44,632 nucleotides of DNA, from assembly GCA_031490075.1 (NCBI GenBank), contig GCA_031490075.1_4354.1. The stretch is one strand, 5' to 3'. Below, piece by piece: positions 3,360 to 40,889 of this stretch. How positions within the stretch are numbered: the stretch's first letter is position 1; each line of letters begins with the position of its first letter. The notes beneath the pieces are model-generated. The model worked only from the letters and a program-made list of their open reading frames with translations, was not told where the DNA came from and made no database searches. Source of the DNA: a phage. Position numbers and translations under genes: made by a program.

Positions 3360-3384
3360 TCCTCTGTCTCGTTCCGATAAGTGA

Positions 3385-3413
3385 ATAGTATCCTATTATG
3401 TTGGGGTGTGCAA
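3385..3413 (-). promoter_or_regulatory. Sigma70-like promoter with embedded palindrome (TTGCAC-N17-TACTAT on minus strand)
   Basis: Read on the minus strand: TTGCAC, 17-bp spacer, TACTAT; AATAG-N4-CTATT at 3384-3397. The flanking sequence is closely similar to the promoter at 2286-2314. Confidence 0.6.
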
Positions 3414-7168: not shown

Positions 7169-7198
7169 GTCAATTACTCCTTAGTCAGTTGATATGTG

Positions 7199-7228
7199 AA
7201 TAGTACCATATTAATTATTTTAGAAAAG
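7199..7228 (-). promoter_or_regulatory. Putative promoter of the XRE regulator gene with imperfect palindrome
   Basis: Minus-strand -10 TACTAT with weak -35; imperfect site AATAG-N4-ATATT at 7199-7212. Confidence 0.35.
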
Positions 7229-7232
7229 CCCA

Positions 7233-7261
7233 TTGACATGTGAATAGTTCGCTATTATAGT
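7233..7261 (+). promoter_or_regulatory. Sigma70-like promoter with embedded palindrome (TTGACA-N17-TATAGT)
   Basis: TTGACA, 17-bp spacer, TATAGT; spacer contains AATAG-N4-CTATT (7243-7256). Confidence 0.65.
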
Positions 7262-9614: not shown

Positions 9615-9814
9615 TTCAAGTAAATGAAATGCCCACAGATAAAGATTTTGTGATGATATGGCGCTGGGGCGGTTATATCCATTCGGAATCGTTTACGTTC
9701 CTGAACGGCACGATGGTGCGATACAACCATGTGGAGGATGAATTCGAACCCGTTGATATGAATGATTTCGAGAACATAGTCCGTATTGCGAAATTTTATT
9801 TGACACCTGAATAG
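9611..9814 (+). CDS. Hypothetical protein
   Basis: ATGA-coupled to the nuclease gene. Confidence 0.4.
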   Translation: MIQVNEMPTDKDFVMIWRWGGYIHSESFTFLNGTMVRYNHVEDEFEPVDMNDFENIVRIAKFYLTPE

Positions 9815-9828
9815 TTAGCTATTATAGT
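9800..9828 (+). promoter_or_regulatory. Sigma70-like promoter with embedded palindrome (TTGACA-N17-TATAGT)
   Basis: TTGACA, 17-bp spacer, TATAGT; AATAG-N4-CTATT at 9810-9823. Confidence 0.65.
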
Positions 9829-26884: not shown

Positions 26885-26913
26885 TTGCACACCCCAATAT
26901 AATAGGGTACTAT
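26885..26913 (+). promoter_or_regulatory. Sigma70-like promoter with embedded palindrome (TTGCAC-N17-TACTAT)
   Basis: TTGCAC, 17-bp spacer, TACTAT; AATAG-N4-CTATT at 26901-26914; GGAGGGG SD follows. Confidence 0.65.
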
Positions 26914-26943
26914 TCACTTACACCAACAATGGAGGGGTTTAAA

Positions 26944-35685: not shown

Positions 35686-35949
35686 CTATTCCAGAATATT
35701 CCTCACGTAATCCTGCAACATGAACACTTTCAGCCGCAGCTGCCGTACGCATTCAGCATTCTGAACGTCGACGGCCAAATCCTCATCAGCGTCGCTACTT
35801 GGCTGCGCCAGTTTGCACGGCGGCTGCATCATCGTCGTATCCGGGGATGGAATTGGCGTTGGCGACGGCGCGGGACTTGAGCTGCACGCGCTCAGGGTCA
35901 AAAGTGCACACGCTGCGACCAGGCGTTTTAATGTACTTAACGACTTCAC
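35686..35949 (-). CDS. Outer-membrane spanin component (Rz1-like lipoprotein)
   Basis: Signal peptide ending in the lipobox LSAC, then a Pro-rich segment; starts inside the Rz-like gene in a different frame. Confidence 0.5.
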   Translation of the reverse strand: MKSLSTLKRLVAACALLTLSACSSSPAPSPTPIPSPDTTMMQPPCKLAQPSSDADEDLAVDVQNAECVRQLRLKVFMLQDYVRNILE

Positions 35950-36181
35950 GGGTAATCACCTCTGATTTCGTCTTGCCTTCGTTGTCAGCGGCGGCGGCCT
36001 TCGATTCATCCTGCTGCTGCCGTTGTGTTTTCTTCGCTAACTCAGCCTGTGCTTTCTGCTGTTGCTGCGAAACGAGATTAGCCCGGCCTTCGTTCCATCC
36101 GCTGCGATACTGGTAGATGCCGTGTGCGTAAACCAGGATGATGAAACATGCTCCTGCTACGACAGTTGCTTTAAGATTCAT
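35795..36181 (-). CDS. Inner-membrane spanin component (Rz-like)
   Basis: N-terminal transmembrane helix followed by a Gln/Ala/Lys-rich coiled coil; contains the lipoprotein ORF. Confidence 0.55.
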   Translation of the reverse strand: MNLKATVVAGACFIILVYAHGIYQYRSGWNEGRANLVSQQQQKAQAELAKKTQRQQQDESKAAAADNEGKTKSEVITREVVKYIKTPGRSVCTFDPERVQLKSRAVANANSIPGYDDDAAAVQTGAAK

Positions 36182-36291: not shown

Positions 36292-36434
36292 CAATAGAGT
36301 ATGGCCCTTCCGAACGCGTCAGCGTAACTACACTCAGGACTTACGTCCCGCTCCGTTACCTGCCCGCGCCGCGGTCGCTTGTTCATACTTCACAAGCTCA
36401 GGTGGAGCTTATCATATTTTTAGTGAAAAGTCAA
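36292..36434 (+). repeat. Copy 2 of the ~145-bp imperfect direct repeat (partner at 3578..3722)
   Basis: Same conserved blocks in the same order as copy 1. Confidence 0.7.
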
Positions 36435-36500
36435 CTATTCGAATAGTTTATTCCAACATTTACAATTTAGTGGAATAACTGGAATACATAAACAAATAGT

Positions 36501-36529
36501 TTGCGCACCCCGATATAATAGGGTACTAT
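36501..36529 (+). promoter_or_regulatory. Sigma70-like promoter with embedded palindrome (TTGCGC-N17-TACTAT)
   Basis: TTGCGC, 17-bp spacer, TACTAT; AATAG-N4-CTATT at 36517-36530; GAGGAGG SD follows. Confidence 0.65.
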
Positions 36530-36556
36530 TCATTCTATCGAACCGAGGAGGCCGCC

Positions 36557-36637
36557 ATGTTAGTCGTTATTTCAGTAGTAATTGCAGTTGATGCGGTGAT
36601 GTTTCTTTGGGCTTGTAGTGGTATTGGTGAACTATGA
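36557..36637 (+). CDS. Small hydrophobic peptide (26 aa)
   Basis: Strong SD; stop overlaps the lipoprotein start. Confidence 0.3.
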   Translation: MLVVISVVIAVDAVMFLWACSGIGEL

Positions 36638-36978
36638 AATATATTAAATTAGCAGTAGCGGGTGTTGTAGCCGTCTGTTTGAGTGGTTGCGTAAGGTCGT
36701 TGCCAGACCCAGCTTTACAGGTTTATCAGGCAGGGGATACAACGGCAACATGTAATCAGTTACTATCGAGAATCGCCACGACAAAACAAGCTCAAGCCAA
36801 CGCTACGCACCGTGTTAATAAGCAAATAGGTACTAACGTTGTACTCGGTGTTACAGGCGCATTCCTGATTGTTCCGCTGTTCTTTATGGACACGGGCGCC
36901 GGGCCTTCTATGGACGAGATGACAGCCGGTAATCGTCTGTCGCAGTTACAACAAACATACGACGAGAAATGCAAATGA
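36634..36978 (+). CDS. Lipoprotein with additional hydrophobic segment
   Basis: Signal peptide with lipobox LSGC; later hydrophobic stretch VVLGVTGAFLIVPLFF; plus strand inside the minus-strand head module. Confidence 0.65.
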   Translation: MKYIKLAVAGVVAVCLSGCVRSLPDPALQVYQAGDTTATCNQLLSRIATTKQAQANATHRVNKQIGTNVVLGVTGAFLIVPLFFMDTGAGPSMDEMTAGNRLSQLQQTYDEKCK

Positions 36979-37096: not shown

Positions 37097-37551
37097 GGCT
37101 TAGTAACCTTCGCCGCTTTACTGACGGCCTCTACCCCATCGGCATCAGTAACTTTAACGAAGCATTCGCTGACCGCATTAACCGTCAGAGACAGAGCCTC
37201 CTCAGGCACATTCACCACTTCCTTACCGTCTTTGTACCAGGTCAGAGAATACGGCGCTTTGCCTGCCTTAACCTCGACAGTGATGGTTGCGCTGCCGCCC
37301 GCCAGTTCAGCGTCCTGCGGTTGCGCAGAGAAATACACGTCGCCAGCGTCCGCCAGATACGGAATTTCATAAAGCATACCGGCGGCGGGCAACGCAATAC
37401 CGGTTTTATCTGCAAACGGCATATCATCTACCGGTGTACCGAGTACACTTTCGTCCCCAATAAATACCACGTTCTCGCCAGAGCCAGACACGCGGGCGTA
37501 CTGGACTACGCGACGAGACGGTACGTCAGTTACTTTGAAAAAGCCCATCAT
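37090..37551 (-). CDS. Hypothetical protein with C-terminal Ig-like region
   Basis: APYSLTWYKDGKEV resembles Ig-like repeats; downstream of the head morphogenesis gene. Confidence 0.45.
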   Translation of the reverse strand: MMGFFKVTDVPSRRVVQYARVSGSGENVVFIGDESVLGTPVDDMPFADKTGIALPAAGMLYEIPYLADAGDVYFSAQPQDAELAGGSATITVEVKAGKAPYSLTWYKDGKEVVNVPEEALSLTVNAVSECFVKVTDADGVEAVSKAAKVTKPE

Positions 37552-38594
37552 TATTCCCCTTTCAGATAATCAGCAACACGTTTATCGAGTTCCGCCATCT
37601 GCTTAAGCGTGAGCGGATTCCCGAAACCATCTACAGATATTACGCGAAACTCTTCCGGCGATATACCGCTGTTACGGAAAATCTTACCTCGCACCGGGCC
37701 GAGCGCCTGGTCCTGAAACCACGCCGGTTGTTGTTTAAGGAACTCATAATAGGTGGTATCTGCGCTTACCTGAGTACCTCCGTCCGCACCCTTAGCCGCG
37801 CGTTTTGCACCTTTATCGAGGAAGTCGAACCCCGAACTGATTACTGGCGCAGTAGTACTCCGGCAATTCGGATGTGCTGGCGGCATCGGCCCCTTACCGA
37901 TTTCCCACGTCATTCCGTCTCGGGCCCTGCAAATCGTACTGGTGCGGCTATCCAGCGTTGACACCCACTCGTACTTCTCGATGATGTCGTCGTTCTGGCG
38001 GTACGTCTCGTTACGGGCTTCGTTGGATACATGCGACAGCGCAGTGCGGATTACTGTAGCCGCATATTTCTCAGACACGTCAGCAAGCCCACCCTTACCT
38101 ACTACTTCTTTAACAATCTGCTGTGTAGTCTTGCCCTGAACAAAGCCCATCTTAACGCCAGTTACCAGGCGCGCGACTTCTGTTTCACCCCAACCTGACA
38201 TCAGCTTGGTGAAATCGACGGGCTTGTCACTCAATGATAGTGGCTGAAACTCGGCAGCGGCCCACACCTGTTCTGCGGTAGGCGTAACAAATTCCGCGTT
38301 AACGTTGGCGGTAAGTGTCTTTACGTTCCACTCTGCTTCATACGCCGCCAGTTCCTTAAGGTCTTCTGTCAGCTTTGTCTGCCAGTCACCTGTAAGTCCG
38401 GTTAGTGCTTCTTCGAGGTCGCGTAACAGTTTATTCAGCCGCGCGGTGCTTCGCCCGTCGTCGCCGAATAACAGCACCTGCCGTTTGATTTCGTCCCGCA
38501 TTTCCTGAATGAACGGTGCTAGGTCTTTCACTTCACCAGATGCGGTGCGTTGCAGCCAAATCTGGTGGCTGATTAGTGATGTCAGTAAGCTCAT
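37551..38594 (-). CDS. Head morphogenesis protein (Mu F / SPP1 gp7 family)
   Basis: WVSTLDSRTSTICRARDGMTW...PPAHPNCRST is the characteristic conserved region of this family. Confidence 0.85.
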   Translation of the reverse strand: MSLLTSLISHQIWLQRTASGEVKDLAPFIQEMRDEIKRQVLLFGDDGRSTARLNKLLRDLEEALTGLTGDWQTKLTEDLKELAAYEAEWNVKTLTANVNAEFVTPTAEQVWAAAEFQPLSLSDKPVDFTKLMSGWGETEVARLVTGVKMGFVQGKTTQQIVKEVVGKGGLADVSEKYAATVIRTALSHVSNEARNETYRQNDDIIEKYEWVSTLDSRTSTICRARDGMTWEIGKGPMPPAHPNCRSTTAPVISSGFDFLDKGAKRAAKGADGGTQVSADTTYYEFLKQQPAWFQDQALGPVRGKIFRNSGISPEEFRVISVDGFGNPLTLKQMAELDKRVADYLKGE

Positions 38595-38675
38595 ATACCC
38601 TCCTGTTTCGATATGACAATCATATCAGTCGGTAACGTATTGGCATAATCATACGCATTTAAGGTTAAAAAGAGC

Positions 38676-38708
38676 TTGATTAAATTCTACATTCAAATGT
38701 AGAATTTA
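38676..38708 (+). promoter_or_regulatory. Promoter with perfect 12-bp inverted repeat operator
   Basis: TTGATT, 18-bp spacer, TAGAAT; TAAATTCTACAT-TCAA-ATGTAGAATTTA (38681-38708) overlaps the spacer and -10. Confidence 0.55.
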
Positions 38709-38736
38709 AACGTACACTTAAACAGGAGAAATACAC

Positions 38737-39390
38737 ATGAAACTGCAAACATTAGAGTTCCCTTATGGAGAAATCACTTTTGACCGTGAAAACTTTATTA
38801 ACGTAAACGAGCTGGTTGACCAGATGAACCGTTGGCGTTTAGACAACGGCATGGGGGCCAGAGAGCTTCGCCAGGTCATGGCAACGGATGGCTTCAAGAT
38901 TTTCAAGGAGGAATGCGAAAAACAACTCGGAATCGAGAATGCCATAAGGGCGACGAAAGGCCGAAACGGTCGCACCTTTGCATGTCTCCATCTGGCAGTA
39001 TATATTGCTGAGCAATACAGCGCCTATTTCCATTTCCTCGTTATAGACCGCTTTATCACACAACGGCAGGTAGAACTACGAAACATTGGCGCGGTGAGCT
39101 TTGTCGAGCTTAACGCTGCCGTTAGTCGAATGATCGAGCGCACGGAGGGAAGAATTGGCCACAGTGGACACTTCATACAGGTGGCTAAAGCGGTAAAGGA
39201 ATCCGTAGATATCCGCGACGTAACGGGTTTCGATACATGGGACTCTCAGGATGCGAAGACCAATCAGTTGCGAAGTGACATCCAGAAAGCTCTGGTGACG
39301 CTTCTTGACATGGAGGCCGTTAATACATGGGGTGAACTGAAAGAGGCGATACCTCGGGTTGTGCGTAAATGTGCGGCTAATATACGTTAA
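38737..39390 (+). CDS. KilA-N domain protein
   Basis: N-terminal GEITFDRENFINVNELVDQMNRWRL resembles the KilA-N pattern (FDENGR...N...L...RFDNWLRL) of P1 KilA-type proteins; GGAG SD. Confidence 0.55.
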   Translation: MKLQTLEFPYGEITFDRENFINVNELVDQMNRWRLDNGMGARELRQVMATDGFKIFKEECEKQLGIENAIRATKGRNGRTFACLHLAVYIAEQYSAYFHFLVIDRFITQRQVELRNIGAVSFVELNAAVSRMIERTEGRIGHSGHFIQVAKAVKESVDIRDVTGFDTWDSQDAKTNQLRSDIQKALVTLLDMEAVNTWGELKEAIPRVVRKCAANIR

Positions 39391-39396
39391 AACTAA

Positions 39397-39420
39397 GGCC
39401 CCTAGCGGGGCCTTTCTATT
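39397..39420 (+). terminator. Rho-independent terminator
   Basis: GGCCCC-TAGC-GGGGCC followed by TTTCTATTT. Confidence 0.6.
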
Positions 39421-40889
39421 TACTCCTGTTGTTGCGCGGACTGCGGAATTTCTCCTGCTACCTGAGCAACCGCACCCAACGGCAGCGGTGCGTCCCCAAT
39501 AGCGTTCTGAATGTCCTCATCGGTCCAGTCGGTTACGCCAGCCTTACGCAACGCGGCGTAGTAAGCAGTAGCCGGTAGCAGGCCAGCGTTAATGTCCACC
39601 ATCCACTGAGCGCGGTCCTGAGCTGTCATCGGTTGCAGGAAGAACTCCATGTTCAGCTTGAATTCAATCTCTGTGTCTTCGCGCAACCCTAGCATCGCCG
39701 CTACCCAGCGCAATGCCTCGGTATACGCCATACTTACGTTACGTGCGATTGTCGCCATAACAGACGTATCCGCGCCACGTTGCAGGCGGGCGGATTCGGC
39801 GGTGATTTGCTGCGTCGGGGTGATAAGCTGCGCACCAATCTGAATGGCCTGATTCTCTTTATCCAGCATATTCTGTTTGGCGAGGTTGTTCTCTCCTGCC
39901 TGAACAAGAAATGCATTGCCGCCGTAACCGATGTTATGGCCCGAACGCGACCCCATGCGCACGCCGTGAGGGTTGGCTTCTTTCCACTGTTCCATGCTCA
40001 TGTTCTCGCCAGGGGCGATGAACAGAGTAGGCTGGCCCACAACGAAGCTGGATTCCTCGTTGTCCGCGCTGTTGCGGAAATGCCCGATATTAAGCTCAGC
40101 TAACGGCAGCAAAGGTGCATCATCAATGGTCACATCGTTGTTGCTTGCCCCAATGAACGTGAACGGGATTTTGCCCCGTAACTGTTCGCCAAGTTCCGGG
40201 AATATTTCGATTACATCATCCTGAGCGCCACCTTCGGCATCGAAGCGATAGATTCGCTGGCGGTAGCGCCCGTCAATCAAATCGAGAACGCGGTATTGTT
40301 CACCGAACTTTGTTTCGAACTCAGCGCCTGGTTCCGAGTATTCCCACACCTCACGTAACACGACCATCGTCACACGGTTCACTGAGCCGATGCGGGTCAG
40401 TCGCCAGTTGATGATGTTCTCAGCAGTGTAGAATGCAATGACCGGGTTTAGTAACCCCGCGTTCTGTTCGGCTGCCGTTGCCGCGGCTGTCTCCGGGGCG
40501 TCCACCAGCAACCCGCCACGACCCACCGAATCAATCTCCATTAGCGTATCCTGTGCGTGCTGCCACAGCCCGACACCAGAACCGTCCGCGTTACGTAACA
40601 GGTACTCCAGTTCAGGCGGTATAATCTGCTCGGGGTCTTTGTGCATGACACTGCCGACCATCCCCACCAGCGTGCGTTTGGTGAAATTGTAACAGATAGC
40701 GCCGTTCTCGTATTCTTCCTGGCGCTGTGCCGCGTAGGTCGGGTCCGGCTCATTCTTCCCAACGTTGCGCAGATAGCGGATAAGGTCGCCTTCCAGCGCG
40801 TGGCGCACCTTCTGCCATTTATCGAAGTGATGCAGCCATTCCCGGTGTTTTGTCTTAACACCCTGATTCTGACCGTTCATAGTTAACAT
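39420..40889 (-). CDS. Portal protein
   Basis: 489-aa protein immediately after the large terminase gene; size and position. Confidence 0.75.
   Translation of the reverse strand: MLTMNGQNQGVKTKHREWLHHFDKWQKVRHALEGDLIRYLRNVGKNEPDPTYAAQRQEEYENGAICYNFTKRTLVGMVGSVMHKDPEQIIPPELEYLLRNADGSGVGLWQHAQDTLMEIDSVGRGGLLVDAPETAAATAAEQNAGLLNPVIAFYTAENIINWRLTRIGSVNRVTMVVLREVWEYSEPGAEFETKFGEQYRVLDLIDGRYRQRIYRFDAEGGAQDDVIEIFPELGEQLRGKIPFTFIGASNNDVTIDDAPLLPLAELNIGHFRNSADNEESSFVVGQPTLFIAPGENMSMEQWKEANPHGVRMGSRSGHNIGYGGNAFLVQAGENNLAKQNMLDKENQAIQIGAQLITPTQQITAESARLQRGADTSVMATIARNVSMAYTEALRWVAAMLGLREDTEIEFKLNMEFFLQPMTAQDRAQWMVDINAGLLPATAYYAALRKAGVTDWTDEDIQNAIGDAPLPLGAVAQVAGEIPQSAQQQE

Follow-up and report, generated by a model that had tools for sequence, protein, structure and literature searches.

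We suggest that a KilA-N gene of the phage contig GCA_031490075.1_4354.1 (44,632 nucleotides (nt), the whole of this stretch being called the window) probably encodes a dimeric autorepressor that is carried in a mobile cassette. The gene lies on the plus strand at 38737..39390 and specifies a protein of 217 amino acids (aa), and its core promoter is covered by a perfect palindrome, the putative operator. Among related phages the palindrome exists in several discrete types, and each type goes together with its own variant of a patch in the DNA-binding domain of the protein. Such cassettes and probable autorepressors belong to known kinds, and the interest lies in the matched variant series and in the role of the invariant C-terminal domain. 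What is new here is a natural series of matched protein variants and operators of 26 base pairs (bp); the reading of DNA by phage KilA-N domains is almost unexplored. A search of the accessible literature returned no paper on this KilA-N gene, its palindrome or its expression.

A palindrome over the promoter of the KilA-N gene

The putative operator, TTAAATTCTACATT-CA-AATGTAGAATTTAA, occupies 38680..38709. Its two arms (38680-38693 and 38696-38709) are 14 nt long, 100% complementary and only 2 nt apart. A reading made earlier from the sequence alone, referred to as the sequence-only reading, had described a perfect 12-bp inverted repeat around four bases at this place, and this 12+4+12 arrangement is the inner part of the larger 14-2-14 repeat. 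No other closely spaced perfect inverted repeat in the 44.6-kb window is as long; when the window was simulated 100 times with matched composition, the longest arm had a mean length of 9.2 nt and never exceeded 12.

The repeat also appears to be specific to this gene. Elsewhere in the window, neither the half-site (allowing up to 2 mismatches) nor the dyad (up to 3 mismatches) has further copies above chance. Among the 2.9 million viral contigs of IMG/VR, the type-1 and type-2 palindromes, as defined below, were each found solely beside the KilA-N gene. No near-perfect copy was found in complete Escherichia coli genomes, in a search that copies with several mismatches would escape.

A sigma-70-like core promoter can be recognised at 38676..38705 on the plus strand by a consensus scan, with a -35 hexamer TTGATT (38676-38681), an 18-nt spacer and a -10 hexamer TAGAAT (38700-38705), matching 9 of the 12 consensus positions. 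The palindrome begins at the end of the -35 and stops 4 nt beyond the -10, and its core, AAAT...ATTT, spans 26 bp (38682-38707). A promoter of the gene's own, overlapped by the repeat, had been part of the sequence-only reading; it is present at the consensus level and the layout of -35, palindrome and -10 recurs in relatives, with a promoter annotated at the equivalent place in phages AG11 and Jersey. Reading the sequence further downstream, a ribosome-binding site (AGGAG, 38724..38728, plus strand) is seen 8 nt 5' of the ATG and is kept in relatives.

The operator had moreover been set apart from a "palindrome regulon" of the same DNA, and this distinction can be upheld because that regulon is marked by a separate promoter motif, TATAATAGGGTACTATTCA, which is found at 7 other sites in the window, differs from the palindrome and is absent from the KilA-N promoter. 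A minus-strand promoter inside the palindrome was considered as well and rejected, as the mirror -35 matches the consensus at 1 of 6 positions.

Operator types and protein variants change together

In the upstream DNA of about 25-30 loci, each operator type is paired with one variant of aa 40-83 (38854..38985, plus strand), the variable "specificity" patch, and no exceptions were seen. Type 1 combines the half-site AAATTCTACAT with the patch motif GMG[AT]RE[LI]RQVMAT, and is found in the window, EcoPhCCP1, Kenya-K47 (with one imperfect arm) and many Macdonaldcampviruses. Type 2, with the half-site AAATGGTATAT and the patch motif GMGFKHLRQLMTT, is found in Jersey, SETP7, FSL SP-101, SI2 and sam, and in the Macdonaldcampvirus background in SB28. 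Type 4a (AAATACTAC with GMGTKNLSQLLAT) was found at loci L044-L046 and type 4b (GAATACTAT with GMG[VE]KNLSQLLST) at L017 and L049. Another 21 phage records hold a type-1 operator and a type-1 patch together at an identity of at least 95%.

Types 1 and 2 are each present in both Guernseyvirinae and Macdonaldcampvirus, and it is possible to compare what follows the type with what follows the genome background. Operators of the same type in different backgrounds have an identity of 0.92, compared with 0.64 for different types in the same background. The same is seen for codons 40-83, where the identity is 0.74 within a type across backgrounds and 0.66 within a background across types. For the 5' untranslated region (UTR) together with codons 1-39 the order is the opposite, 0.79 for the same type across backgrounds and 0.86 for the same background across types, and codons 84-217 likewise track the background. 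The stretch that separates the operator from the patch (5'UTR and codons 1-39) follows the background, so that the covariation is not that of one linked block. Between types, the nonsynonymous divergence (pN) reaches 0.20 in codons 40-83, as against about 0.04 outside them.

Two marks of an autorepressor are hence seen here: a dyad lies over the gene's own core promoter, and the operator and the DNA-binding domain change together, although linkage may contribute to the latter. As far as sequences can tell, the covariation points to the KilA-N protein itself as the binder of the repeat, a matter that the sequence-only reading had left open.

The geometry is fixed in spite of the different types. 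The AAAT...ATTT edges are 26 bp apart and the palindrome starts 55-57 nt 5' of the ATG; the left arm adjoins a -35 of the form TTGAnn or TTGCAA, and the -10 (TAGAAT, TACCAT/TATACC or TAGTAT) is always inside the right arm. Homologues at 25% identity have other perfect palindromes (e.g. with the half-site TTATTATAA), which lie 52-56 nt 5' of the ATG and enclose a TATAAT. Within the 90 nt before the ATG, arms of at least 8 nt are present in 10 of the 13 lineages, compared with 3.7% of control windows.

AG11-like phages have tandem promoter copies. There, the type-2 protein retains a type-2 operator with an intact TTGACA, and the neighbouring type-1 palindrome has a damaged -35. In AG11 and many similar Salmonella phages (L001, 3370-3470) a 27-nt flank is repeated, with the type-2 copy distal and the type-1 copy proximal. 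Judged by its sequence, this tandem duplication resembles a scar left by recombination between phages with different operator types.

Among phages, the central spacer occurs in either orientation (CA/TG, CTAT/ATAG and GTCTGGAT/ATCCAGAC). This fits a symmetric dimer that reads the arms alone and disfavours a strand-specific RNA signal. Examples of inverted spacers are position 38694-38695 of the window and the operators of L002, L004, L019, L044 and L046, and template switching mediated by a hairpin or cruciform would be expected to produce such an inversion between perfect arms. With TA at its centre, the operator of L042 is a gap-free 26-bp palindrome. In L046 a 56-bp palindrome lies upstream of the gene (1431-1486), and its 24-nt arms include the -35 (TTGACT); this promoter is mirror-symmetric and could fire both ways, including towards the head morphogenesis gene.

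The KilA-N protein

The assignment to the KilA-N family, also taken from the sequence-only reading, stands for the family rather than for the single sequence. The 217-aa protein itself, at 20.4 bits (E 4.6e-4, aa 13-105), misses the gathering threshold of the Pfam model (PF04383), which is 23.8, but its homologues and its predicted fold support KilA-N. Homologues were obtained by profile search, with E values down to 1e-23. In the alignment A2, 34 of the 50 homologues match KilA-N at E <= 0.01, the best of them at 7.1e-18, and the homologues P0040 (31.1 bits) and P0076 (26.7 bits) exceed the cut-off. Since members of the homologous family match the Pfam model, the window protein belongs to KilA-N by transitivity. 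NCBIfam holds no family for the protein.

A structure model made from 50 diverse sequences has a predicted local distance difference test (pLDDT) score of 92.8; it replaced an earlier model from 20 close sequences that was too poor (pLDDT 72.8). The model predicts a Mbp1/APSES-type N-terminal domain at aa 1-108 (38737..39060, plus strand), i.e. the APSES/KilA-N DNA-binding fold, followed by a DdrC-like helical C-terminal domain at aa 111-217 (39067..39387, plus strand), which is predicted to serve in dimerisation or as a second DNA contact. In a profile alignment to Mbp1, which is not significant (E 0.18), aa 40-83 fall on helices A and B and the strand before the conserved GRNG wing.

The coding sequence is under purifying selection (pN/pS 0.02-0.3). 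Residues 84-217 are nearly invariant among close homologues, and residues 40-83 come in discrete variants.

PHROG 6095 matches the protein over its full length and is labelled "amidase", a label that has been copied into many GenBank/RefSeq phage records. An amidase or endolysin is rejected, as no amidase-type Pfam match was found in the protein (E <= 1) or in the 50 homologues (E <= 0.01), and it is also contradicted by the predicted fold of a KilA-N domain plus a helical bundle. The present assignment corrects a widespread annotation, one that affects the genomes of hundreds of Salmonella and E. coli phages, including some used in biocontrol.

Longer homologues carry a GIY-YIG/MUG113/T5orf172 domain N-terminal to the same KilA-N and C-terminal domains. 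In the window protein no GIY-YIG-superfamily nuclease domain matches at E <= 1, and the open reading frame (ORF) starts directly with the KilA-N domain. Domain matches of this kind suggest that the 217-aa protein is equivalent to the products of GIY-YIG/T5orf172 endonuclease-like mobile genes with the nuclease taken away, so that the DNA-binding part is left.

A self-contained cassette and its mobility

Positions 38676-39414 form a self-contained accessory cassette, or moron, with a sigma-70 promoter, a palindromic operator, a ribosome-binding site, an ORF and a terminator. The cassette is flanked on the left by a head morphogenesis gene of the Phage_Mu_F/SPP1 gp7 type (37551..38594, minus strand; Pfam Phage_Mu_F E 7e-14), and on the right by a DUF4055 portal gene (39420..40889, minus strand; Pfam E 4e-24, annotated as portal in relatives), after which comes the large terminase gene. 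Its orientation is opposite to that of the late packaging and head operon.

Of the terminator that the sequence-only reading had given to the gene, the hairpin remains but the ownership is doubtful. A G+C-rich hairpin of 8 pairs, 6 of them G-C, was found by a terminator scan and by folding at 39395..39414, between the stops of the KilA-N gene and the convergent portal gene. Its folding energies are -15.4 and -16.8 kcal/mol, and it is usable on both strands. This consensus-level terminator is probably shared or bidirectional, because a similar hairpin follows the portal gene even in a relative in which the slot is empty.

Escherichia phage EcoPhCCP1 matches the region at 95.7% identity, and many Jerseyvirus (Guernseyvirinae) genomes do so at about 84%; the window is that of a Guernseyvirinae-type virulent siphovirus. 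No match to the region as a prophage was found in complete E. coli genomes. The KilA-N gene is present in the same slot between the portal and Mu-F genes in hundreds of Jersey-like phages, and roughly 370 phage records contain it. The slot is empty in Escherichia phage Henuyfy11N, where a 36-bp spacer between the two genes consists of the hairpin and about 20 flanking bases, and a consensus scan of this relative found no promoter for the head gene. At the Henuyfy11N junction (L056, 1669-1704) the hairpin, AAAGCCCCTTTCGGGGCT, shares both its stem and its loop with the terminator in the Macdonaldcampvirus copy of the cassette. Other plus-strand cargo in the slot is a clamp-like gene in phage Sciku and a 129-aa ORF in 22664BS2. 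We regard the slot as a natural boundary that bears a terminator and is a hot spot for varied cargo.

The cassette also occurs at other positions in other phages. In Macdonaldcampvirus, where its nucleotide identity is 76-78%, the KilA-N gene is encoded on the opposite strand, with the tape-measure gene on one side and, on the other, a small hypothetical ORF that is itself upstream of the minor tail genes. In a third background the cassette is found upstream of the small terminase gene. Metagenome and genome scans contributed just 4 of the loci. The mobile unit extends from about 10 nt upstream of the -35 as far as the terminator, in agreement with the limits of the cassette in the window. Because the slot can be empty or hold other cargo, the cassette is found at other loci and the limits of the mobile unit match, the cassette is an autonomous accessory element, and the proposal that it was inserted between the portal and head genes is well founded. 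Its own promoter and terminator, together with presence/absence polymorphism among relatives, are the properties of a moron. It also shares with homing endonucleases the trait of a free-standing gene with a patchy distribution between conserved genes. Distant relatives occupy typical places for free-standing mobile genes: the nrdA/nrdB and TerL/Mu-F junctions, and sites following the capsid gene and the DNA polymerase gene. Together, these comparisons describe a mobile and probably self-limiting cassette, related to endonuclease-like mobile genes, which travels between unrelated siphovirus lineages.

Two observations concern individual copies. The Mu-F gene beside the cassette in L049 (1-1322) carries an intein (Intein_splicing), as has been reported for phage Snoke (PMC6776784). 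In L043, a scaffold from the Bacteroidota assembly of Taishania pollutisoli (NZ_JACVEL010000022.1), the gene is of the Jerseyvirus type (73% identity, type 3), probably because the assembly is contaminated with phage DNA.

A model of autorepression

We suggest that the cassette limits its own expression. Early in infection, host RNA polymerase would initiate at TTGATT-18-TAGAAT. The accumulated protein would then bind as a dimer to the half-sites AAATTCTACAT and ATGTAGAATTT, and the bound dimer would cover the spacer and the -10 hexamer. The promoter would be occluded and the protein level kept low and fixed by negative autoregulation. The conserved wing (RGRNG) may contact the conserved AAAT edges, and the variable positions of the half-site (5-6 and 9) may be recognised by the variable patch.

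As no other operator-like site is present in the window and no near-perfect copy in E. coli, the sequence-specific activity of the protein seems to be devoted to self-control. A regulon of phage genes is disfavoured because the gene's own promoter is the sole specific site found in the phage. Any further activity of the protein probably runs through the invariant C-terminal domain. An accessory function under tight control, as proposed in the sequence-only reading, is plausible.

Several points weigh against autorepression by the KilA-N protein. The promoter is a consensus match. With only about 170 bp between the operator and the patch, linkage should lead to some co-inheritance. Synonymous sites are nearly saturated (pS 0.4-0.9), and the truly independent combinations of type and background are few. 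In type 3 (SE2-like, the largest Jerseyvirus group) the dyad has arms of just 6-7 nt and a different spacing, and in the distant homologues L027, L029 and L060 palindromes are weak or absent. Lastly, the type-1 patch differs at many residues while the type-1 operator is constant. From this it follows that specificity would have to be confined to few residues, the candidates being 41-43, 47, 49, 67-68 and 72. Through these residues and the half-sites, a recognition code is directly testable.

Alternative explanations

The palindrome could instead be the operator of another regulator, either a host factor or the general early regulator of the phage, with the variation in the KilA-N protein unrelated to it. 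Binding of the palindrome by the KilA-N protein is something that we infer, and the separate regulon of seven promoters, with its dyad after the -10, indicates that the phage encodes or uses at least one promoter-proximal regulator. However, the motif of that regulon differs and does not occur at the KilA-N promoter, and a host factor would leave the existence of four palindrome types among phages of one host (Salmonella) unexplained. For either regulator, one would have to account for a palindrome that is kept with the cassette in at least three unrelated genome backgrounds, that is confined to the neighbourhood of the KilA-N gene among the viral contigs searched and that has one protein type for each of its own types. 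We therefore consider another regulator unlikely.

Equally unlikely, in our judgement, is a decayed remnant of a homing endonuclease, i.e. a selfish free-standing gene that has lost its GIY-YIG domain and is useless to the phage, the operator being a relic of the recognition site. The nuclease domains at the N-terminus of longer homologues, the location of family members between conserved genes and the existence of an empty-site allele all agree with such an origin. Strong purifying selection, an intact gene in hundreds of phages and an almost invariant C-terminal domain are, however, not the pattern of decay. Such an origin is also compatible with autorepression rather than opposed to it.

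Somewhat less probable still is a function like that of BstA and aba, where the protein would be a factor of inter-phage competition or exclusion that acts on DNA, and the cognate palindrome a "self" element that neutralises or sequesters it. As a formal parallel, BstA has a KilA-N-like N-terminal domain, a second, C-terminal domain and a short, variant-specific cognate DNA at the 5' end of its own gene (PMC8585504). Here too, discrete cognate types of protein and DNA coexist among closely related phages, and 14 of the 50 homologues match the PADLOC defence candidate PDC-S22. Sequence comparisons with BstA of BTP1, however, gave no sign of homology (hhalign probability 0.1; BLASTP E 0.056 over 28 residues outside the equivalent domain). 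BstA is borne by prophages, whereas the gene studied here is found in virulent phages. Further, aba consists of terminal direct repeats that overlap the start of the ORF, while here the palindrome exactly covers the core promoter, for which repression is the simplest explanation.

By analogy with BstA and aba it can be speculated, at rather long odds, that the pairs of KilA-N protein and palindrome form a self/non-self recognition system of virulent phages. The protein would then attack or silence co-infecting relatives through its invariant C-terminal domain, the phage's own copies of the palindrome, amplified in replication, would titrate or disarm it, and diversifying selection would drive the specificity types.

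Finally, a signal at the RNA level, whether a hairpin for processing or one that terminates transcription of the opposite strand, is very improbable: late minus-strand read-through transcripts would include the palindrome, which as RNA forms a hairpin of 13 pairs (about -12 kcal/mol on either strand, z about -4), but the stem is A+T-rich, no U-tract adjoins it on either strand (a minus-strand T-run begins 9 nt past the stem), the terminator scan of the window did not call it, the predicted plus-strand start (near 38711-38713) is downstream of it, and its register to the -35, the -10 and the ATG is constant across sequence types. An intrinsic terminator in particular was rejected on the composition of the stem, the lack of an adjoining U-tract and the negative scan. 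The two results that the sequence-only reading had named as decisive against it, a palindrome that is a simple terminator and a profile search that rejects KilA-N, were thus not what was found.

Comparison with known systems

The closest working analogue of the proposed autorepression would be I-TevI, the GIY-YIG homing endonuclease of T4, whose DNA-binding domain represses its own promoter through an overlapping operator and limits its own expression (PMC2988022). Both are phage-borne free-standing or mobile genes, and the relatives of the window protein carry GIY-YIG-superfamily domains. However, the window protein lacks a nuclease domain and would bind by a KilA-N domain and a helical bundle, in contrast to the zinc finger, helix and helix-turn-helix of I-TevI. 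The site also differs, being asymmetric and at a T4 late promoter for I-TevI, and a symmetric palindrome at a sigma-70 promoter here.

CapR, from the Vibrio PLE satellite, is a nuclease-free DNA-binding repressor from the T5orf172 homing-endonuclease lineage (PMC8096241). By its description it resembles the protein proposed here, as both would be nuclease-free derivatives of the T5orf172/GIY-YIG lineage that act as repressors. CapR represses the capsid operon of its helper phage, while the sole specific site found for the window protein is at its own promoter.

Compared with the fungal APSES/KilA-N proteins (Mbp1, Bqt4; PF04383), which read short asymmetric sites within large factors, the small window protein appears to read a 26-bp dyad. 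In the structure model, the overall two-domain architecture resembles that of the dimeric DNA-binding protein DdrC of Deinococcus radiodurans, but the sequence identity is only 10-13%. DdrC binds DNA without sequence specificity, senses breaks and belongs to the bacterial damage response, and we know of no operator for it.

The separate regulon and other features of the window

The motif TATAATAGGGTACTATTCA consists of a -10 hexamer followed by the dyad AATAG-N4-CTATT, and none would be expected by chance. The seven sites are 2283-2301, 3382-3400, 7197-7215, 7241-7259 and 9808-9826 on the minus strand, and 26898-26916 and 36514-36532 on the plus strand. They form a separate regulon, presumably of early promoters under one regulator. 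An identical motif drives the clamp-like gene in the portal/Mu-F slot of phage Sciku (L003, around 1595-1615).

Outside the cassette, a weak promoter-like site (ATGCCA-16-TATGAT with a TG) was found by consensus match upstream of the head morphogenesis gene (38619..38646, minus strand).

A second plus-strand mini-cassette (36500-36978) sits inside the minus-strand head and lysis block and has the regulon-type promoter at 36514. It contains a small hydrophobic ORF (about 36558-36638) and a lipoprotein-like one at 36634..36978 (MKYIKLAVAGVVAVCLSGC...), and a perfect 16-bp palindrome, AACTATTCGAATAGTT, lies upstream of it at 36433-36448. Arms of the AACTATT/AATAGTT form are also seen on the flanks of the type-4 operators in L046 and L047. 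Between the scaffold gene and the decoration and Mu-F genes there are overlapping Rz/Rz1-like spanin ORFs (35686-36181, minus strand); the second of these has a lipoprotein signal (…LTLSAC), and relatives are annotated likewise.

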